Sequence record: PZ324410.1
DNA from: a phage
Length of the DNA stretch: 47,561 bases
Reading direction: 5' to 3' (one strand)
Below are positions 5,456 to 46,766 of this stretch, one piece after another. How positions within the stretch are numbered: the first letter of the stretch is position 1; each line of letters opens with the position of its first letter. Both the position numbers and the translations under genes were made by a program. The notes under the pieces are model-generated. The model was not told the origin of the DNA. It ran no database searches and saw nothing but the letters and a program-made list of their open reading frames with translations.

Positions 5456-6007
5456 ATGAAATCAATAAATCGCAATAAAATGCCTTCATTGGCTCGCCTT
5501 TCACACCTATTCATCATTTCCGCCGATGGAACAATCAAGCGCAGAATGGCTGCTGGCAATAGGGCGGCAGGAAGTAACGCAGAAAGGAATTTATGTGGTA
5601 GTGACTATACATGCATAACTGTTGATGGTGTTAGGTATCTCACCCATAGGGTTATTTGGTATTTTTTTACTGGTGAGGAACCTGATTACCTTGATCACAT
5701 AAATAGAAACAAAAAGGACAACAGGCTATGCAACTTGAGACCAGTGTCCGCCACGGGAAACAGAAGCAACACTGATTTGATGAACAGCAATACAACTGGA
5801 TATATTGGCGTTTATTGGTATCACTACAAAGGAACTCCTAGGTGGAGAGCTGCTTGCAACGATAAACATCTTGGATATTACCGTTCGCTTGTATCAGCAG
5901 TAAAGGCATACAATCGTTATGTGATAAGTGTTTATGGGGATGAAGCATTAGCAAAGGTTGAGCATAATAAGAGGATGATCAAAGAGTCTTTTGGCATTGA
6001 ACTGTAG
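5456..6007 (+). CDS. HNH homing endonuclease (HNH + AP2-like domain)
   Basis: motifs HRVIW...LDHINRNKKDNRLCNLRPVS...GYIGVYWYHYKG; GAGGAG RBS before ATG 5456; paralogous to three other ORFs in the window. Confidence 0.7.
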   Translation: MKSINRNKMPSLARLSHLFIISADGTIKRRMAAGNRAAGSNAERNLCGSDYTCITVDGVRYLTHRVIWYFFTGEEPDYLDHINRNKKDNRLCNLRPVSATGNRSNTDLMNSNTTGYIGVYWYHYKGTPRWRAACNDKHLGYYRSLVSAVKAYNRYVISVYGDEALAKVEHNKRMIKESFGIEL

Positions 6008-6113: not shown

Positions 6114-6728
6114 TTAATCCTCCAGCTTCACGCCTGGAATTTTACCAATCTCAATCGCCTCAATGATTCTTTCAGCCAACCCAATGTATCCTTCTGCGCC
6201 TTTTGGGTTGCCATAATAATAAAAAATAGTCTCTACCATATCGTTAACCATGGCATCGCGCTTCTTGTCTGCTTCTGAGCGGAGTGGGCGGAATTCACAT
6301 AGCTTATCACTGAAGTAAACTGCATGCCGATCATAATTCCATCCGAATGCAAATCCATCGTGATTAGCAATGATGTCAACAGGAATAAAATAACCAACCG
6401 CATCTTGCATCTCACACTCACACCCAACCGGAGGCAGGCCTTCGCCATTCCATGTGGGTTTCTGCGATGCTGCGAGTGCGGATTCGTATTGGTCGCGGGT
6501 TACGATTGATTCTGCATTGTCACATGATAACCAATCGTCATCATCAAATAGAAAGTATCCAGATAAGCCTCTTCCGCTTATGTGTCCCCATCCAAATCCG
6601 TTGTATTTTGGGTCATCGTACTTCCAGCAACATAAATAACCGTCACTATTTTGCGTTACAGACACCCAGTTTTCACGCCATCCACCACGCTTGGGTAATT
6701 CACGCACTAACAAGTCGATAAGTTTCAT
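6114..6728 (-). CDS. hypothetical protein (204 aa, Trp/Gly/Cys-rich)
   Basis: long ORF with stop/start coupling to neighbours; no family recognised. Confidence 0.55.
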   Translation of the reverse strand: MKLIDLLVRELPKRGGWRENWVSVTQNSDGYLCCWKYDDPKYNGFGWGHISGRGLSGYFLFDDDDWLSCDNAESIVTRDQYESALAASQKPTWNGEGLPPVGCECEMQDAVGYFIPVDIIANHDGFAFGWNYDRHAVYFSDKLCEFRPLRSEADKKRDAMVNDMVETIFYYYGNPKGAEGYIGLAERIIEAIEIGKIPGVKLED

Positions 6729-6740
6729 TGGTTTTCTCCA

Positions 6741-6956
6741 TTAATAATTTGGCTTTACGTCTTTCATCGTTAGCGGCTTCCATCCGCTTGCTATCGCAAT
6801 TTCAATGCAATCCTCAAGCGTTTTGGCTTTTATTGGTTCGCCAACTTCACTATCATCAAATTTTCTCTGTATTTGATAGCCATCTACGACGTAAAGAATC
6901 TCCACAGAGCCATGCAGTGTATGCATCGACTCAAGCCATTGCAGGTGGTAGCTCAT
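6741..6956 (-). CDS. hypothetical protein
   Basis: 71-aa ORF in co-directional minus cluster. Confidence 0.45.
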   Translation of the reverse strand: MSYHLQWLESMHTLHGSVEILYVVDGYQIQRKFDDSEVGEPIKAKTLEDCIEIAIASGWKPLTMKDVKPNY

Positions 6957-7309
6957 TTTGCTTCTCCCAACGCCTTATTAACCGCCGCACGCGCATTATC
7001 AAGAGCGCGACGCTTGCTTGATGTTGTCCATACTTTGCCGGATTGGTCGTCGTAGATTTCCAGTAACTGCTGGAGTGCTGACAGCAGGTCTGGTGATGCA
7101 GCCATTAAATTAAAATCATGCTCTACACTACCGTCAAGCTCCCAGTGCATTCCGTTGTATTTAGCGCCCTTACTTGAGAAAATGATATTCCTGTCATCAT
7201 CCTCGTGACAACCAGGAGTGTCGTCACTGCGGCAAACTGGATAAATTGCTGCGCAGCCTCCGCGAATGTCTGCAACCCACGGGCCTTTCGTGCCTTTAAA
7301 CTCTTTCAT
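6953..7309 (-). CDS. hypothetical protein
   Basis: ORF 6953..7321 trimmed to ATG at 7309 (MKEFKGTKGPW...). Confidence 0.5.
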   Translation of the reverse strand: MKEFKGTKGPWVADIRGGCAAIYPVCRSDDTPGCHEDDDRNIIFSSKGAKYNGMHWELDGSVEHDFNLMAASPDLLSALQQLLEIYDDQSGKVWTTSSKRRALDNARAAVNKALGEAK

Positions 7310-7317
7310 TACCAACC

Positions 7318-7458
7318 TCACTTAACATACTCAACAATTTCACACTCACGCATCTGCACCAGACCAAATGGCGCGACCAGCTTTCCGCATTTCATAACTT
7401 TGATCTGAGACAAATCGAATGCGGCGGTTTGTCCGGTGGTGAATTTTATGATTGCCAT
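7318..7458 (-). CDS. hypothetical small protein
   Basis: 46-aa ORF hand-translated (MAIIKFTTGQ...); below ORF-track cutoff. Confidence 0.3.
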   Translation of the reverse strand: MAIIKFTTGQTAAFDLSQIKVMKCGKLVAPFGLVQMRECEIVEYVK

Positions 7459-7519
7459 TATTCTGCGCTCCATATTGACCACCCATCTTTTTGCCAGTCA
7501 TGGCCCTTGTACCAATCGG

Positions 7520-7645
7520 TCATGTTGTAGCCCATTTCACAACCATGACGCCATTATGCATTTCAAAAAACTCATCACTGGTAAATCCCTGCGCCTTAAC
7601 TCTTTTCCCAGACTTCATTGCCTCGACAGCTTCTTCGTAAGTCAT
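7520..7645 (-). CDS. hypothetical small protein
   Basis: 41-aa ORF (MTYEEAVEAMKSG...); GAGGG RBS; first gene downstream of minus promoter. Confidence 0.35.
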   Translation of the reverse strand: MTYEEAVEAMKSGKRVKAQGFTSDEFFEMHNGVMVVKWATT

Positions 7646-7676
7646 ACCAAAACCCTCACTCGTTATTGATGTAGAT

Positions 7677-7705
7677 ACTATGCGCGACAATCCAATCTAC
7701 GTCAA
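7677..7705 (-). promoter_or_regulatory. sigma70-like promoter TTGACG-N17-CATAGT on minus strand
   Basis: read on reverse complement; -35 inside atctacgtcaa repeat. Confidence 0.4.
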
Positions 7706-7713
7706 TAGCTATG

Positions 7714-7722
7714 TGATAAAAT
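7714..7722 (+). promoter_or_regulatory. extended -10-like element TGaTAAAAT upstream of lysis cassette
   Basis: TGnTAnnnT-type element about 25 nt before endolysin ATG. Confidence 0.3.
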
Positions 7723-7745
7723 AATCTACATCAGGAGGTGAATTC

Positions 7746-8180
7746 ATGAAACTATCGCAACGCGGCATCGATTTAATTAAACAATTCGAGGGTTGCAGCT
7801 CGAAGGCGTATCCAGACCCCGCAACCGGAGGTGCGCCGTGGACTATCGGCTATGGCACAACCAAAGGCGTTAAGCCAGGAATGACCATCACCGCTGAGCA
7901 GGCTGAAAAGATGCTGCGCGATGATGTGGCTAAGTTTGAATCTGGCGTTTCTGCATTACTAAAAGTTCCGACCACGCAGGGGCAATTCGACGCAATGGTC
8001 TCGCTGGCATACAACATTGGCCTTGGTAATTTTGGCAAGTCAACACTGCTACGCAAGCATAACGAGAAATGCTATAGCTGCGCCGCTGGTCAATTCCCCG
8101 TATGGAATCGCGCTGCTGGCAAGGTTATGAATGGCCTGACCCGGAGGCGTAACGCAGAGCGCGACGTTTACATGTCATGA
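7746..8180 (+). CDS. endolysin, GH24 (T4-type) lysozyme
   Basis: FEGCSSKAYPD...WTIGYGTT catalytic Glu/Asp/Thr pattern; no N-terminal SAR/TMD. Confidence 0.8.
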   Translation: MKLSQRGIDLIKQFEGCSSKAYPDPATGGAPWTIGYGTTKGVKPGMTITAEQAEKMLRDDVAKFESGVSALLKVPTTQGQFDAMVSLAYNIGLGNFGKSTLLRKHNEKCYSCAAGQFPVWNRAAGKVMNGLTRRRNAERDVYMS

Positions 8181-10498: not shown

Positions 10499-10595
10499 TT
10501 CTTACTCTCCTTTAGAAAACATCTTGACTTAATCTACGTCAATCGTCAATACTTGTTGATGTAGATTGTATCACAAAGAAAAGAGGTGATGTGGA

Positions 10596-19073: not shown

Positions 19074-19102
19074 ACTATAAACACCTCATCAATCTACGTC
19101 AA
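19074..19102 (-). promoter_or_regulatory. sigma70-like promoter TTGACG-N17-TATAGT on minus strand
   Basis: hexamers with 17-nt spacer on reverse complement; -35 lies in atctacgtcaa repeat. Confidence 0.45.
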
Positions 19103-19149
19103 CTGGAATATGCTAAAATTATGCTAATCAAACAACAGGAGATTTAAAC

Positions 19150-24274: not shown

Positions 24275-24757
24275 TTACTTTTTGCCGTGGTTTTCATGAA
24301 AGTTATAATAAATTTCTGCATTTTTTCTAGCTCTCCCTGCATCATTGATATCACTAAAAAAACCCAATGAAATCTCTTTCTTGTTAACTGATATTCTCGC
24401 CCTCCACTTCCCCATTCTTTTGGACCAGCTAACGCCAACAATACCACTTGTGTTATCTATCCTTTTTGAAAGATTTACACTGTTTTCTTGCCTGCTTACA
24501 ATCCTCAGGTTTTCAATTCTGTTATCCAGCCTGTCATGGTTAATGTGATCAATCTCCATACCGTCAGGTATTGGGCCGTTATGCATTTCCCATATAACTC
24601 TATGCACAAGCTGCGTTTTGCCAAACAAGCTAACCTGCAAATAACCATCTGGTCGAACAGTTCCTGCATTATGACCAGCCATGGCATTTGAAGACCTCCT
24701 TGCTTTCCATTTCAAGGCACCACAATCATATTCAAAAATATCATCCAAAATATTCAT
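24275..24757 (-). CDS. HNH homing endonuclease (HNH + AP2-like)
   Basis: LVHRVIWEMHNGPIPDGMEIDHINHDRLDNRIENLR and GIVGVSW motifs; paralog of 46263..46766. Confidence 0.7.
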   Translation of the reverse strand: MNILDDIFEYDCGALKWKARRSSNAMAGHNAGTVRPDGYLQVSLFGKTQLVHRVIWEMHNGPIPDGMEIDHINHDRLDNRIENLRIVSRQENSVNLSKRIDNTSGIVGVSWSKRMGKWRARISVNKKEISLGFFSDINDAGRARKNAEIYYNFHENHGKK

Positions 24758-28426: not shown

Positions 28427-32548
<4,122 letters not shown>

Positions 32549-34542: not shown

Positions 34543-34968
34543 CTAATTTTGTTTTGGATAATTCTTCGATCTCCAGTCGTTAAAAGCCATCATTGCTGCT
34601 TCCCATCCTAGCGCTACACACACTGTGCATCCGGCATTTAAAGATGCGGAAAGGTAATCAATCTGGCCTTCCTCCCAATCGCTAAGAGTGTGGTCTTTCC
34701 TCTTCATCTCAATAACAAGAGATGGATTTCCAGGGATTATTATATCTGACGCACCTTTATTTAAAGCGCCTTTCTTTTTTAGGTTGCTGACCTCATGTGC
34801 TTTTCTCTTTCCTTCGTTTGGAATGTGAAGCACCAGCCGACCAAAACTATCAGGATACATTTTCCTCAATTGATTTATAAAAGTTACAAGCTCAGCGTCT
34901 TCAACATGACACTTCTTGTCTCTGTATGTTTTATCTCCATATACCTTTAGCCATTCAGGAAAAATCAT
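34543..34968 (-). CDS. VRR-NUC domain nuclease
   Basis: PD-(D/E)xK-like core DIIIPG...VIEMKRK in 141-aa ORF trimmed to ATG 34968. Confidence 0.5.
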   Translation of the reverse strand: MIFPEWLKVYGDKTYRDKKCHVEDAELVTFINQLRKMYPDSFGRLVLHIPNEGKRKAHEVSNLKKKGALNKGASDIIIPGNPSLVIEMKRKDHTLSDWEEGQIDYLSASLNAGCTVCVALGWEAAMMAFNDWRSKNYPKQN

Positions 34969-36830
34969 AATACCCCCCAATACATGCCTTTAACGTTGAA
35001 ATATTTACTACCCTTATCTCTTCTGAACATAATCACTGATGGCGAGACAGCCTCATCTCTTTTAGATATTGCATCATCAATTGACATGTTATGTTCACCA
35101 AAGCACTTCTCACAAAATTCTTCCCACTCCTTCTTCATCCATTCCTTCTCAGAGTTTGGATTGTAGAACTTGCTAACAAAAAATGGTTTCTGTTCAATAG
35201 CAAATTTTACGTGCACCAAATCTTCACCGCTTGAAACGTAATGCTTCATGATGTTCATCATGGTTACACTTGATTGCTTGGTTGCATAAGGAGAAGAATC
35301 AAGCCTGTCAGCTTCTTCCTTTAGTTTTTGGTTGGGGTCAATAATTTCAGCTCCGCATGATGTGCAATTTCTTGCTGCTATATCATTTTCAAACCCACAA
35401 TCTGGACACTCCTTTACCGACCATTTATAAGTACACCTATGCATTTCCCTTAGTGGTCCATGCATAACGTAGTTTTTACACCGCCTACCAAAATGAGCAG
35501 GCATGGGCTTGCTTCCAATCTTTTCACCTGACTTATCAAAAATATCAATCATTACTCTGTCACCCGCCAAATCCAGCCAGTAACCTTCCTTGTCAACTTC
35601 AAGATTTTCAGGATTTGGGCGCACACCAAATTCATTAATAAAGCCACAAAGAGGGCATTTGACATCCATTGGCACGGATGGTTTTTTCCTTGTTGCTTTT
35701 ATTTCTGGAGTGAACAAGTCCCCGGTCTCAGAAAAGTGACGTTGAATATTGCCTGCGTAATCGCTGACAAGAAAGTCTTCCTTGCCTTCATAAAGACGCG
35801 TCCCCCTGCCAATTATTTGCTGGTATAGTCTTGGTGATTCTGTGGCTCTCATTACTGCTATGTGATCACAATGAGGAACATCCACCCCTACAGTAAGGAT
35901 ATTCTGATTGACGATGTATTTAACTTTTTGCGCCTTGAAGTCTGATATTGCCTTATTGCGTTCAGCTGTCGGCATATCACCAAAAACATAACTATAAGAA
36001 CCGGGAGGCAGTGACTCCATTATCTCCATAGCGTGTTTCTTTGTGCTGGCAAAAATCATCGTTCCGAGACGATTAACGGAGCGACGGATAATATCTTCAA
36101 CAATACGTGATGTCTTCCTTCCCTTGCCAACCATCGCCTTTTCAACTGAAGATGTTGTGTACCGACCCAACTTATCCTTTTCAAGACAAGACGTATCATA
36201 CTCGTCAAAAACAGGCTCTGTAACTGGCGGCGTAAGGTATCCGTTTTCAATGAGGAATTTCGCCTCAAGCTCATAAACGACTTTGTCGTAATATGGGTCT
36301 ATGGCTGTTTCTTCATCTGTAGGACCGTCGAGGTAATGCTCTTTGTAGATGTATCCAGTTCCAAGGCGATAAGGCGTAGCGGTCATTCCAATAACACGCA
36401 GTTTTGGATTGCGACGCTTCATTTCATTAATAATAAATTTAATGGTTGGTGTTATTCCATCGCACTCATCAATAATGACAGCACCATACTTATCACCAAA
36501 CATCTCTATTGAGTTCTTGATTGTAACTGGTGAACCAAACACCACCGGATGACGCAGGTTTTTTGGGCCAGCCTTTGCACTGAACATGCTGGCTGGTTCT
36601 CCGGTGAGAAGATATTTAGCGCGATTTTGTGTGACGAGTTCCGCCGTGGGAGCAATGCACAAAACTCGCTTTTTGCTCATGCCATAAATACGAGATGCAA
36701 GTTCTGCTACAACCATAGATTTTCCTGCACCTGTAGGTAGGATGATAACGCATGATGAGATTGTGCTGCGAATGTGTGCCATAGCTGAATCAACAGCTTC
36801 CTGTTGGTATGGCCTTAGTGTGTATTTCAT
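34965..36830 (-). CDS. SF2 DEAD/DEAH-box DNA helicase with C-terminal zinc fingers
   Basis: Walker A PTGAGKS, DECD box, MTATP motif, QIIGRGTR motif VI; Cys pairs near C-terminus. Confidence 0.8.
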   Translation of the reverse strand: MKYTLRPYQQEAVDSAMAHIRSTISSCVIILPTGAGKSMVVAELASRIYGMSKKRVLCIAPTAELVTQNRAKYLLTGEPASMFSAKAGPKNLRHPVVFGSPVTIKNSIEMFGDKYGAVIIDECDGITPTIKFIINEMKRRNPKLRVIGMTATPYRLGTGYIYKEHYLDGPTDEETAIDPYYDKVVYELEAKFLIENGYLTPPVTEPVFDEYDTSCLEKDKLGRYTTSSVEKAMVGKGRKTSRIVEDIIRRSVNRLGTMIFASTKKHAMEIMESLPPGSYSYVFGDMPTAERNKAISDFKAQKVKYIVNQNILTVGVDVPHCDHIAVMRATESPRLYQQIIGRGTRLYEGKEDFLVSDYAGNIQRHFSETGDLFTPEIKATRKKPSVPMDVKCPLCGFINEFGVRPNPENLEVDKEGYWLDLAGDRVMIDIFDKSGEKIGSKPMPAHFGRRCKNYVMHGPLREMHRCTYKWSVKECPDCGFENDIAARNCTSCGAEIIDPNQKLKEEADRLDSSPYATKQSSVTMMNIMKHYVSSGEDLVHVKFAIEQKPFFVSKFYNPNSEKEWMKKEWEEFCEKCFGEHNMSIDDAISKRDEAVSPSVIMFRRDKGSKYFNVKGMYWGVL

Positions 36831-37204
36831 AAGTCAAACTCCTTGCACCACTCGACAACATGCTCGCACTGCTTAACATCAAACATTCCTATGTGACACT
36901 TCTCTTTTCTTATTCCCATCGAACTAGCTAATGCAGAATAAGCAGAGCCTCTTGACATTTTTCCTGATTTCCATAAGGGATCAAATGCAGCATGGGCTTT
37001 GCTTTTTGCCTTTCTTAATTCTTCATTTGCCACACGCCCAAGAGGTCTTTTCCCATCACCATTTTTGTGGCAACCAACATAAGCACCACAAGAATCACAT
37101 AGATAAAAATTAAGAGACGAAAGGTCTGGTCTGTGTGGGTAAATTTCACTCCCTTTAGCTAGTCTTGTCGCAATATTGCAGTAATCACAGATAACTTCGT
37201 ACAT
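36827..37204 (-). CDS. zinc-finger protein
   Basis: CDYC and CDSC Cys pairs; ORF trimmed to ATG 37204 with GGGGG RBS. Confidence 0.5.
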   Translation of the reverse strand: MYEVICDYCNIATRLAKGSEIYPHRPDLSSLNFYLCDSCGAYVGCHKNGDGKRPLGRVANEELRKAKSKAHAAFDPLWKSGKMSRGSAYSALASSMGIRKEKCHIGMFDVKQCEHVVEWCKEFDL

Positions 37205-37261
37205 ATAAACCCCCAATTAAAAGCCCCTTAGCGGGGCTTTATTTAAATAAACATCAAGTCA

Positions 37262-37783
37262 TTAAAACGGCACGTCAGAGTCAAAGTCCATCGGAGGCTC
37301 GTTAGATGGCGCTGATTGCTTAGGAGCAGGCGCTGATTTTGTTTGTTGACGACTGAAAACACCAGCCACATAGTTACCAGTTTTTTGCTTATCCTCAGAT
37401 TCCCAAACGCGCAGAAGAAGGATCATCGGGCGATTAGCAAGCGCACTAGCAATAGCAAAATCAGTCGGCTCTTTCCCTGACGCCATCAGCTTGCCACCAG
37501 CGTTTGCGTCAATTGCTGCAAGCATAGTGATAGCATTGTCGCGCTGCTTTTCTTTTGAGCTAAATACTTTCAGCTTCTGGAAGATGATGCGATTTTTATA
37601 CTCACCATCAAGGATTCTCCACTTAAGATTGAAGAATCGCTCACCTTCCCACTGATCGTCTTTACACTCTTCAACGGCAGCAAGAACACGGCTGCCATCA
37701 GGAATTACTTCGAAACCACCACCCAGCTCAAATTCAGATTTAGATTCAACAGCTTTACCGTCAGAAAGATTCCAGAAACCCAT
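37262..37783 (-). CDS. putative ssDNA-binding protein with SSB-like acidic C-terminal tip
   Basis: C-terminus MDFDSDVPF resembles bacterial SSB tip DFDDDIPF; sits beside Gp157 and AAA_24 genes. Confidence 0.5.
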   Translation of the reverse strand: MGFWNLSDGKAVESKSEFELGGGFEVIPDGSRVLAAVEECKDDQWEGERFFNLKWRILDGEYKNRIIFQKLKVFSSKEKQRDNAITMLAAIDANAGGKLMASGKEPTDFAIASALANRPMILLLRVWESEDKQKTGNYVAGVFSRQQTKSAPAPKQSAPSNEPPMDFDSDVPF

Positions 37784-37800
37784 TTTTGTGTCCTCTCGAT

Positions 37801-38280
37801 TTATTTGATGATCAGTTTTGGCTTGCCATCTGTAATGGCACAACCCTTAATCTCAATCCCGGCTTTTATCGCATTTTTAATTGCTGCGTTATCTGCCGAC
37901 ACTTTCACAACGCGGTACTGCTCAGGAAGCTGTTCAACAGGGACAAACACATCAAGAACTGGTGATGGTTTTCCAAGCGTGATACTGAACAACTTACCTT
38001 TGATGTTTGTCTTTCCTGACGCCATCATGTTTTGACGAAGATAATCTTTAAGGTTATCAATCTTCGCAACTAAAACACGCTTACGCTCAGAAAGACGGTC
38101 AATCTCTGATTTAAGTCCAGCTTCATCAGCTTCAAGCTCACGAATGTAAGCAGCAACCATTTCAGCCTTTCCTTCAAACTCCTCTTCAATAAGATTGATG
38201 GTATCTTCAATCTGCTCCCGTGGAATATCCTCCATCGCCAGTAGTTCATTAAGCTGTTTGGTTATCTCGTAGAGATGCAT
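37801..38280 (-). CDS. Sipho_Gp157 family protein
   Basis: N-terminal MHLYEITKQLNEL and coiled-coil typical of Gp157; start uncertain. Confidence 0.55.
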   Translation of the reverse strand: MHLYEITKQLNELLAMEDIPREQIEDTINLIEEEFEGKAEMVAAYIRELEADEAGLKSEIDRLSERKRVLVAKIDNLKDYLRQNMMASGKTNIKGKLFSITLGKPSPVLDVFVPVEQLPEQYRVVKVSADNAAIKNAIKAGIEIKGCAITDGKPKLIIK

Positions 38281-39091
38281 AATATTTAATCTCACTCAAA
38301 AGTGGGTTCTCACCTTTTTCAAAAGGAATTTCAGGTTCAAGGTTGTATCTGTTTTTAGCATTAACATACCCAATACGACCATCACCAGAGGTGATAAGAA
38401 CTCGCTGACCAGTCTGAACAACCTTTCCAAACTTGGTGACTTGCCCTTTCTTATCAGTCTCAGTTCCTTTCACAAACTCTTCATTTCTGATGTAAATAAC
38501 AGCATCACTAAGATTCACATAACCAGAAACTGAAGCATCATGCATGTCAAGTGTGTAAACGGTGTATTCATCAGCATCAGGTCGATTCTTCATCTTTTTA
38601 ACACCTGCGTGTGCAAGATAAATAATGCTCATCCCTTTTTCTTTGCGAAGATACTTGCATGCATTTATTATTTCAGCGTGCATTTCAGAAACAACAATAT
38701 ATCCTTTGTTGTAACCACCAGCCGCAGAACCTACGTTGTCAACACCGTAATTTTCACAAACCTCATGCTCAAACATTGAATGCAGGCTTGTGATTGAGTC
38801 AATTACAAGCGTTTTGTAATTATGTTCCTCAGTAATTAATGCGCGTAGCTGTGACAGCAAATCATCCTTTGTGCTTGTTTTGCGTTTAGCGTCAGCGCGA
38901 TTCAGAACAGGAAATGAATCAGGTTTCTTTTCATCATCCCAGTCATCAAAAACACCAGTGATCTCTTCAGCCTGAATAAACACTGGGTTTGGGAATAGCG
39001 CCGCAAGAGTTGTCTTGCCTACACCTGGAGTACCAACCAATGTTATGATTGGTGCTGCTGGTTTTGGTTTTTGAATCATTGATAAGCTCAT
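38249..39091 (-). CDS. AAA_24 family ATPase (Sak4-like)
   Basis: Walker A GTPGVGKTT and Walker B-like VIDSITSL; GAGAGGACA RBS. Confidence 0.7.
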   Translation of the reverse strand: MSLSMIQKPKPAAPIITLVGTPGVGKTTLAALFPNPVFIQAEEITGVFDDWDDEKKPDSFPVLNRADAKRKTSTKDDLLSQLRALITEEHNYKTLVIDSITSLHSMFEHEVCENYGVDNVGSAAGGYNKGYIVVSEMHAEIINACKYLRKEKGMSIIYLAHAGVKKMKNRPDADEYTVYTLDMHDASVSGYVNLSDAVIYIRNEEFVKGTETDKKGQVTKFGKVVQTGQRVLITSGDGRIGYVNAKNRYNLEPEIPFEKGENPLLSEIKYYASLRDNQTA

Positions 39092-39225
39092 AGTGTCCTC
39101 TCGATTTAACTCAGCATATCGCTGGTGTGACTTAAAGATACGTCAACATGATGGTAAACGCAATAGCTTGACGCAAATTTTTTTTGAGTTCATTATTGCT
39201 GCATACAGATAGCAGAGGTAAACAC

Positions 39226-39468
39226 ATGAAAAGCATCGCAGAACAGATAAGAGAAATGGAACAGACGAAGTTGTCGGAGCTGATTGATTATGTTGGAGGG
39301 CAATCACAACTGGCAAGATTTCTTGGTGTGTCAAAACAGGCTGTCAATCAGTGGGTGTCAAGAGGAAGAATTAGTGCTACAGCAGCAATTGATGCCGAGG
39401 CGCTTACTGGTGGAGTTTTCAGAAAGGAAGATTTAAGGCCAGCTGTTACAAAATGGATTGTTAAATAA
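39226..39468 (+). CDS. Cro/YdaS-like HTH DNA-binding protein
   Basis: helix-turn-helix QSQLARFLGVSKQAVNQW; divergent from recombination operon; ORF trimmed to ATG 39226. Confidence 0.6.
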   Translation: MKSIAEQIREMEQTKLSELIDYVGGQSQLARFLGVSKQAVNQWVSRGRISATAAIDAEALTGGVFRKEDLRPAVTKWIVK

Positions 39469-39470
39469 TA

Positions 39471-39497
39471 AAGCCCGCGTTTGCGGGCTTTTTTTAA
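39471..39497. terminator. bidirectional rho-independent terminator
   Basis: aagcccgc gttt gcgggctt hairpin then TTTTTTT. Confidence 0.7.
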
Positions 39498-39889
39498 ACT
39501 CCTTTTGAGCTTAAGCTATCTTTATCACGCCTTCCGCTATACTCTTTGCTTACATCCTCGTACAAAACACCAAACGCCTTACAGAAATTAAATAGTGCGT
39601 CACCCGCAAACACTTCGCTTGGATGCCAGTTTCCGGATTTTCTTGCAACATCCCTGTACGATGCTGTCACTATACCTACATTGTTTTCATATTGTATTCG
39701 ACAAAACAGTACGTCATCATCAATGCAGATACCCATATTGCAGCGGAATACGGGCATTTTCCAGTAGTAAACCTCCATCAGGTGTTTCCCTGTCATCATG
39801 GATATTGCGTTATCATGTGCGCGCTCAGGATTTTCTGACTCAAAATAGTCATACAAACCCCTCATCACCAGATACTTGTAATTGATCAT
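39494..39889 (-). CDS. hypothetical protein
   Basis: 131-aa ORF, overlap-coupled to primase gene. Confidence 0.5.
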   Translation of the reverse strand: MINYKYLVMRGLYDYFESENPERAHDNAISMMTGKHLMEVYYWKMPVFRCNMGICIDDDVLFCRIQYENNVGIVTASYRDVARKSGNWHPSEVFAGDALFNFCKAFGVLYEDVSKEYSGRRDKDSLSSKGV

Positions 39890-46162: not shown

Positions 46163-46297
46163 ATGATTTGTCAAACATGTGGTAAGGAACTTCTTCCTGG
46201 ATGCCGTAAGGATAAGAAGTATTGCTCTCCTTATTGCAAGTTAAAAGCCACGAGGAGGAGAAATGCTGACAGAAAACAGAGAGTTCAAGTGGGATGA
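46163..46297 (+). CDS. small zinc-ribbon-like protein
   Basis: 44-aa hand-called ORF with CQTCG and CSPYC; overlaps HNH start by 35 nt. Confidence 0.25.
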   Translation: MICQTCGKELLPGCRKDKKYCSPYCKLKATRRRNADRKQRVQVG

Positions 46298-46766
46298 TGT
46301 ATTTGATTATAGCGATGGGGTGCTGTCGTGGAAAATTAAGCCTTGCAAGAACATGAAAAAATCATCTCCAGCTGGAACAATGAGAAACGATGGTTACTTG
46401 CAAGTAAGATTCATGAACAAGATACATTTGATTCATAGGATTGTATGGGAAATGTTTAACGGCGAGATACCTGATGGTATGCAGATAGACCACATCAACC
46501 ACGACAGGAGTGACAACAGAATTCAAAACTTAAGGATGGTTACTAAAATATCAAACGGTAGAAATTTGACCAAGAAAACAAATAACACTAGTGGTGTTAC
46601 TGGCGTCTCATGGTACAAAAGCCGGGGGAAGTGGAGGGTGCAAATAATGGTTGACAGAAAAAGTATACACATTGGGTATTTTAGTGATTTTGAATCAGCT
46701 GTTGCCGCAAGGATTTCTGCTAATGAAAGGTATGGGTTCCACAAAAATCACGGAGTGAATTGTTGA
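46263..46766 (+). CDS. HNH homing endonuclease (HNH + AP2-like)
   Basis: LIHRIVWEMFNGEIPDGMQIDHINHDRSDNRIQNLR and GVTGVSWYK motifs; AGGAGGAG RBS. Confidence 0.7.
   Translation: MLTENREFKWDDVFDYSDGVLSWKIKPCKNMKKSSPAGTMRNDGYLQVRFMNKIHLIHRIVWEMFNGEIPDGMQIDHINHDRSDNRIQNLRMVTKISNGRNLTKKTNNTSGVTGVSWYKSRGKWRVQIMVDRKSIHIGYFSDFESAVAARISANERYGFHKNHGVNC

Follow-up and report, generated by a model that had tools for sequence, protein, structure and literature searches.

A conserved 11-nt core at the translation starts of the Sak4-like and SSB-like genes of a phage operon, tentatively read as a portable initiation cassette

In the phage sequence PZ324410.1, whose full length of 47,561 nucleotides (nt) was analysed and is here called the window, an operon of DNA-metabolism genes on the minus strand has the same 16 nt, TAAATCGAGAGGACAC, just upstream of two of its start codons: that of a gene for a Sak4-like single-stranded DNA (ssDNA)-annealing ATPase and that of a gene for a DUF669-type ssDNA-binding protein (SSB). 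We regard the feature as a previously undescribed conserved initiation-region motif of a familiar class, which may also be a translational operator. The reading we prefer, with a probability of roughly 0.45 and thus a little short of even odds, is that of a portable translation-initiation cassette used by all cistrons except the translationally coupled ones. A preliminary description of the window had pointed to an extended initiation context shared by the two genes; that context proved to be position-specific and conserved across clades, and in relatives it also stands before a third replication gene.

The exact repeat lies at 39108-39093 and 37803-37788 of the minus strand, with no further copy in the window. 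The preliminary description had reported a 13-mer, and the identity is in fact longer than that. Written on the plus strand, the 13-mer (GTGTCCTCTCGAT) has two exact occurrences in the window, both at gene starts: one at 37788-37800, as reported, and one at 39093-39105, a single position away from the 39094-39106 given earlier. Frequent occurrence away from initiation sites, named at the time as the outcome that would speak against a role in initiation, was not found in this genome-wide count. The 11-nt core, TCGAGAGGACA, likewise has no additional site on either strand of the whole window when up to one mismatch is allowed. The two copies are as follows.

39093..39108, minus strand: copy 1, TAAATCGAGAGGACAC; core at 39094-39104; Shine-Dalgarno (SD) sequence GAGG at 39100-39097, 5 nt from the Sak4 ATG.
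37788..37803, minus strand: copy 2, TAAATCGAGAGGACAC; core at 37789-37799; GAGG at 37795-37792, 8 nt from the SSB ATG.

At the Sak4 start (ATG at 39091-39089), 2 nt (CT) separate the core from the start codon and 1 nt separates the end of the 16-mer from it; at the SSB start (ATG at 37783-37781) the corresponding gaps are 5 nt (CAAAA) and 4 nt. The stop codon of the intervening Gp157 gene (TAA, 37803-37801) supplies the initial three bases of copy 2.

The length of the repeat is not significant by itself, because about a quarter of shuffled windows (24.5% of 200 dinucleotide-preserving shuffles) hold at least one exact direct 16-mer pair; unrelated exact repeats of 14-18 nt are also found in the actual window. 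Its position at gene starts is significant. Among the 4005 pairs of -30..-1 regions formed by the 90 predicted starts, the 16-nt match is the longest shared string (runners-up of 12, 11, 11, and 11 nt), and in Shigella phage Sf11, with 80 annotated genes and 3160 upstream pairs, the motif pair again comes first (16 nt, then 13, 13, and 12).

Conservation was assessed in 26 loci from 23 distinct sources, comprising GenBank phages and IMG/VR contigs retrieved with the SSB protein. The region is 100% identical in Escherichia phage ECO95 1-6-1, 93-96% identical in Sf11 (Cedarrivervirus), Klebsiella phage YX3973, and Escherichia phage Sa179lw (Buchananvirus), and about 80% identical in Klebsiella phages VLCpiS13c, 6991, and RSU-F4K5. 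The core precedes both Sak4 and SSB in all 26 loci, with two deviating copies, TAGAGAGGACA ahead of Sak4 in locus L023 and TCGAGAGGAAT ahead of SSB in L024. Its flanks vary by site and clade (5' flank AAA, GAT, TAA, TAT, or CAT; 3' flank C or T and then T or AAAA), so that the 16-nt identity in the window amounts to a conserved core of 11-12 nt plus a clade-specific extension. Counted over whole genomes, the motif occurs twice in the window and three times each in Sf11 and VLCpiS13c, always at starts within this single operon, on the coding strand, and 2-5 nt ahead of an ATG. It is absent from the more distant Sak4 phages and contigs that we examined (Enterobacter phage ST22, Pseudoalteromonas phage H103, a Proteus phage, and contigs L027 and L083), among which no alternative extended motif common to the Sak4 and SSB genes was found either.

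A third copy, found in 12 of the 23 sources, comes right behind the SSB terminator hairpin (GGGCCATTCGTGGCCCTTTTTAT), and 2 nt separate it from the ATG of the gene that follows. This is a helicase, in either of two diverged alleles (beginning MKVQLR or MKYTLR), or, in Sa179lw, a 71-amino-acid (aa) open reading frame (ORF), and since the genes behind the third copy differ, the motif belongs to the slot and not to a particular gene. The remaining 11 sources, the window among them, have the slot filled by an inserted gene with a different ribosome-binding site (RBS), either DUF3268 or, in L025, a 273-aa ORF; there the helicase is without the motif and is translationally coupled to the insert, which indicates that control of the helicase by the motif is dispensable.

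The slot itself is a hot spot of insertion and exchange (around position 4092 in L018, L017, L015, and L023; equivalent to about 37205-37260 of the window), with at least five kinds of content: the helicase directly (two alleles, one of them a 968-aa long form), the 71-aa ORF, DUF3268 in two versions, and the 273-aa ORF. In the Klebsiella clade, DUF3268 is preceded by TTATTCTAAAGGAAT (4070-4092 in L026; 4070-4091 in L020 and L021), which looks like a degenerate remnant of the motif context TTATTCGAGAGGACA in which five of nine core bases survive.

How the copies are distributed over the operon can be read from its layout on the minus strand, which runs from the promoter region through Sak4, Gp157, a 17-nt gap, SSB, the hairpin, and DUF3268 to the helicase.

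39226..39468, plus strand: divergent Cro/YdaS-like helix-turn-helix regulator (Pfam YdaS_toxin, E = 4.3e-17; P22_Cro, E = 1.6e-10).
39135..39163, minus strand: putative Sak4 operon promoter (-35 TTGCGT at 39163-39158, 17-nt spacer, -10 TATCTT at 39140-39135).
38249..39091, minus strand: Sak4-like ssDNA-annealing ATPase (AAA_24, 280 aa; Pfam AAA_24, E = 1.9e-27; PHROG 124, Sak4-like).
37801..38280, minus strand: Siphovirus Gp157/Mu Gam-like protein (159 aa; Pfam Sipho_Gp157, E = 2.7e-38; PHROG 253).
37262..37783, minus strand: DUF669 SSB-like protein (173 aa; Pfam DUF669, E = 7.7e-6; PHROG 9002, SSB, E = 1.7e-69).
37219..37246, minus strand: GC hairpin with a short T-run directly 3' of SSB, terminator-like by its sequence.
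36827..37204, minus strand: DUF3268 zinc-finger gene (Pfam DUF3268, E = 4.6e-38) with its own, different RBS, GGGGG.
34965..36830, minus strand: DNA helicase (621 aa; PHROG 16, DNA helicase, E = 4e-87).

Sak4 is the first cistron, and its start is the first ATG, right after copy 1. Conservation in the alignment points to the promoter at 39135-39163, which a consensus scan of the window does not call and whose -35 element reads TTGACC in Klebsiella-clade relatives; the Sak4 leader would then be about 37 nt long and end in copy 1. Gp157 and the helicase, which lack the motif in the window, overlap their upstream neighbour: Gp157 starts 32 nt within the 3' end of Sak4, without a clear SD, and is probably coupled to it, and the helicase shares an ATGA overlap with DUF3268, which in the window sits in the slot where relatives hold the third copy. 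The SSB assignment is accompanied by a C-terminal tail, DFDSDVPF, that matches the Escherichia coli SSB chains 1eqq and 7f2n, and DUF669 proteins have been described as distant SSBs encoded beside sak4 (PMC5928155).

According to the reading we prefer, the cassette would consist of (A/T)TCGAGAGGACAY followed by 1-4 nt and an ATG, and would stand ahead of those cistrons that recruit ribosomes on their own. Its users in the window would be Sak4, which comes first behind the promoter, and SSB, which follows the only real intercistronic gap (17 nt); in relatives, a third cassette would serve the first gene past the SSB terminator, usually the helicase, while the remaining genes (Gp157, and the helicase where it lies behind DUF3268) overlap the gene upstream and would be translated by coupling. 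The cassette would provide a modest SD (GAGG/AGGA) 5-8 nt from the ATG, and the same initiation sequence in front of the partners Sak4 and SSB would be expected to give them linked, similar initiation rates. A reason for matched expression is provided by the dependence of Sak4 on co-expression of its cognate DUF669-type SSB (PMC5928155). The copies probably arose by duplication of one working initiation region during modular recombination and are maintained by purifying selection. We infer that the motif works in cis only, as a site of ribosome loading, and that it equalises translation of the partners; we favour the cis-only reading because the motif is bound to the slot, is lost when an insert brings its own RBS, and lies at a recombination joint in relatives. 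The coordinated translational control proposed in the preliminary description thus survives in part: a shared, selected signal in front of known functional partners makes coordinated translation of Sak4 and SSB a reasonable reading, whereas the autoregulation by SSB that had been attached to it is unsupported.

As an SD, the motif is ordinary in kind. It is complementary to the anti-SD, and its spacings of 5 nt (Sak4) and 8 nt (SSB) lie within the usual range of about 5-9 nt; like any SD region, it is a purine-rich coding-strand stretch (GAGG/AGGA) located in a leader or an intercistronic gap, with 5-8 nt between it and the ATG of a conserved gene. It differs from an ordinary SD region in that 11-16 nt are identical between paralogous sites and invariant within the clade, yet no more than 4 nt are paired to the anti-SD. 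Against the 16S rRNA 3' tail, the best duplex has 4 bp (GAGG with the CCUC of GAUCACCUCCUUA, -5.8 kcal/mol), which ranks 56th of 81 predicted window genes, with a median of -7.2 kcal/mol. Additional pairing with E. coli 16S rRNA outside the anti-SD was considered and rejected, the best duplexes (-10.3 and -11.0 kcal/mol) being no better than those of shuffled motifs and the longest perfect complement of the motif measuring 5 nt. Also rejected was a role of the A/T-rich bases 5' of the copies as -10 elements, since they lack the conserved A2 and the resulting transcripts would lose the SD.

Several of these observations weigh against the cassette. Pairing as weak as this does not explain the conservation of 11 bases, and the TC..A upstream and the ACA downstream of GAGG never change. 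Across 29 ortholog pairs of Sf11 and VLCpiS13c, a mean of 9.1 of the 20 bases at -20..-1 are identical, often with the SD core alone surviving, whereas the three motif sites keep 15, 17, and 19 of 20. Between clades, identity is about 65% over the 400 nt that precede copy 1 and 76-83% in coding blocks, and the core is invariant in the intergenic alignment upstream of Sak4. The argument from conservation is tempered by the replication module being better conserved than any other part of these genomes; even so, the data indicate that purifying selection acts on all 11 core positions. That three copies have remained strictly identical over evolutionary time is left unexplained by a cassette; three paralogous copies that stay unchanged while their flanks diverge are easier to explain by a common sequence-specific reader than by three RBSs selected independently.

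Such a reader is the strongest competing explanation and the one suggested by the excess conservation; we give it clearly lower odds than the cassette. It holds that the motif is an RNA operator of a trans-acting factor, whether a repressor protein of phage or host, an endoribonuclease cutting at the SD, or a small RNA, that switches the recombination and replication cistrons together, in the manner of the T4 RegA or RegB regulons. In its favour, the Escherichia and the Klebsiella clade alike keep all 11 positions at two to three paralogous sites despite variable immediate flanks, conservation extends beyond what pairing with 16S rRNA needs, the sites rank near the top of the 29 ortholog pairs in conservation of the initiation region, and the motif is confined to one operon of DNA-metabolism genes. 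Phage T4 moreover offers a precedent in its RegB/S1 sites, GGAGRAYARAA, where a factor reads an 11-nt motif that includes the SD (PMC3014915). However, no candidate factor emerged when 40 small window ORFs were compared with Pfam, none showing a RegA, RegB, CsrA, or other RNA-binding domain; this is weak negative evidence, since most of them have no Pfam hit at all. No Rfam match was found at the motif sites, the sole hits being sub-threshold ones at the 39442-39506 terminator, and the window holds no antisense copy, its best site (31422-31434, two mismatches) being at chance level. The helicase, moreover, manages without the motif in 11 of the 23 sources, and the distance from motif to ATG varies by 3 nt between copies. 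The 'RNA-binding' ASCH protein gp5 of Sf11 was rejected as the factor because its gene is missing from the window and from most motif-bearing relatives.

Comparison with the two T4 regulators yields only partial likeness. RegA sites resemble the present case in being one short element at or near the start codons of several DNA-metabolism mRNAs; they are A+U-rich, include the AUG, and carry a 5' poly(A) tract (PMC3014915), whereas the core here is 55% G+C, purine-rich, strictly conserved, and ends a variable 2-5 nt before the AUG. No Pfam hit to RegA was obtained among the 45 window ORFs scanned, a search in which most small ORFs had no hit of any kind. RegB/S1 sites (cut within GG*AGRAYARAA) share with the motif a long, 11-nt conserved sequence that holds the SD of several early genes, and the SSB copy is followed by a comparable A-run; unlike them, the motif reads GAGGACA and lacks the invariant GGAG core, and the A-run follows the SSB copy only. 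A RegB homologue was not detected in the Pfam scans of small window ORFs. It is conceivable, though we would put it well below one half, that TCGAGAGGACA is the operator of an unrecognised post-transcriptional regulon in Cedarrivervirus- and Buchananvirus-like siphophages, through which translation of recombinase, SSB, and helicase is switched coordinately. Its reader might be a phage protein of an unknown family, SSB together with Sak4, an endoribonuclease, or a small RNA of the host, and by analogy the regulon would be a functional counterpart of T4 RegA/RegB, unrelated in sequence.

Mosaic phages are built of exchangeable modules, between which conserved linker or boundary sequences are found. 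The repeat could be such a linker acting at the DNA level, its copies being footprints of cassette swaps and insertions through homologous or annealing-based recombination and not regulatory signals. At the third copy this is supported. L018 and L017 are 100% identical over 1.9 kb up to the ATG behind that copy, and 63% and then 52% identical after it; conversely, L018 and YX3973 are 77-85% identical before the same ATG and 100% identical after it. The switch falls exactly at the third copy, which implies that the cassette travels as a module boundary, and the likeness to mosaic-phage linkers lies in this sharp joint together with the varied contents of the slot behind it. The phage moreover encodes a single-strand annealing protein, a class for which recombination of short, diverged homologies has been described (PMC5499656, PMC8093625). 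Exchange near the slot also extends into the helicase gene, whose first ~150 nt were replaced as a separate patch (L023 versus L017: 62.7%, against 96.7% just upstream and 89% just downstream).

The two window copies tell differently. No breakpoint is detectable at either; identity shifts by about 7% at most across copy 2, and the truncated contig L011 accounts for the large jumps that appear at copy 1. The Sak4-Gp157 segment between the repeats is neither deleted nor replaced in any relative examined, and a linker leaves unexplained why every copy is phased at a fixed short distance to a coding-strand ATG, as a pure DNA linker would not have to be. The linker explanation is thus supported for the third copy only, and for the motif as a whole we think it improbable. 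As a separate observation on mosaicism, the window carries three HNH_3 endonuclease genes (24275-24682, minus strand; 46263-46766, plus strand; 5456-6007, plus strand), two of them with an AP2 domain, which are homing-endonuclease-like and may contribute to it.

Autoregulation by the SSB, the form of control suggested in the preliminary description by reference to other phages, fares worse and seems to us very unlikely. The DUF669 SSB would bind the motif both on the mRNA that encodes it and on that of Sak4, and would repress translation whenever free SSB is in excess, as gp32 or the gene V protein does. The motif does precede the SSB gene itself and partner genes, and SSB-type translational repressors are documented, T4 and RB69 gp32 acting on their own mRNA and M13 gp5 on the gene 2 mRNA (PMC535899). 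What the case shares with the gp32 and gene V operators is the setting, phage replication and recombination, and an SSB gene whose initiation region is distinctive and conserved. The T4 gp32 operator, however, combines a 5' pseudoknot of ~28 nt with more than 40 nt of unstructured RNA holding several UUAAA/UAAA repeats (PMC535899), whereas the motif here also precedes other genes, is short (11 nt) and G/purine-rich instead of A+U-rich, and would lie within short leaders, that of Sak4 being the ~37 nt given above. No shared or stable structure is predicted at the copies, the leaders folding no better than shuffles (z = +0.64 and -0.66, with a tool that cannot predict pseudoknots); the sole RNA-structure signal is the terminator beside the third copy in Sf11. 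Repeats of the gp32 type are limited to one UUAAA (Sak4) and one UAAA (SSB, overlapping the stop codon) in the Escherichia clade, replaced in the Klebsiella clade by GUGAU and AAUAA, so that none is conserved across clades. Distant phages with the Sak4 and DUF669 pair (ST22, H103, and the Proteus phage) do without a shared motif, and the helicase has lost it in nearly half of the sources, the window included. SSBs are not known to bind one particular 11-mer unless a structural nucleation site is present, which likewise counts against this mechanism.

Chance resemblance of two ordinary RBSs, which the frequency of 16-mer pairs in shuffled windows and the other 13-nt upstream matches in Sf11 might seem to allow, is effectively refuted by the rank of the match among all upstream pairs (the next being 12 nt), by the third copy in relatives, and by the retention of the core in 23 genomes across about 20% nucleotide divergence.

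Other elements were noticed along the way. The Cro-like/Sak4 intergenic region appears to hold two divergent promoters back to back, at 39135-39163 (minus strand) and at 39168-39196 (plus strand), the latter a promoter-like site ahead of the Cro/YdaS-like gene; the Sak4-side -10 (TATCTT) and the following GTCACACCAGC are kept across clades, and the TTGCGTCAA/TTGACG repeats could be operators. Elsewhere in the window, a 127-nt unit is present in two tandem copies (97% identical, 31088-31341) within the tail-gene region, and a promoter-like ATA(G/A)(T/A)ATAATCTACATCAGG lies at 1935-1954 and 7716-7735, shortly before the ORFs that start at 1973 and 7746. The sequence AATCTACGTCAAT occurs three times (7694-7706, 10531-10543, and 19091-19103), and its reverse complement, ATTGACGTAGATT, has a -35-like hexamer, TTGACG. 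In Sf11, the 13-nt TGGAGAAGATGTG abuts the ATGs of two adjacent small genes (coding sequences [CDSs] 24541 and 24744) and is the second-longest shared upstream string there; of these two copies, the window shows evidence of only one, ahead of 17219.

The motif has an immediate use in correcting start annotations of GenBank relatives, those of Sak4 in Sf11 and YX3973 and of the helicase in Sf11 and VLCpiS13c. Sak4 is annotated from the second ATG in Sf11 (L009, NC_054636.1; 4392-5222) and in YX3973, while the motif precedes the first. The annotated helicase starts of Sf11 (CDS 6221-8131) and VLCpiS13c (L092; 25700-27589) look misplaced: they fall within the terminator hairpin, and the ATG that follows the motif lies 42 nt and 27 nt, respectively, further downstream. 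Beyond annotation, the interest of the motif is modest unless a trans-acting reader turns up. If it is a cassette only, the operon offers an example of a phage combining independent initiation sites with translational coupling, and shows that working initiation regions move with module boundaries. If it is read by a specific factor, it would represent a RegA/RegB-like translational regulon outside the T4 group, one that controls a Sak4-SSB recombination system and would for that reason be of interest for recombineering.

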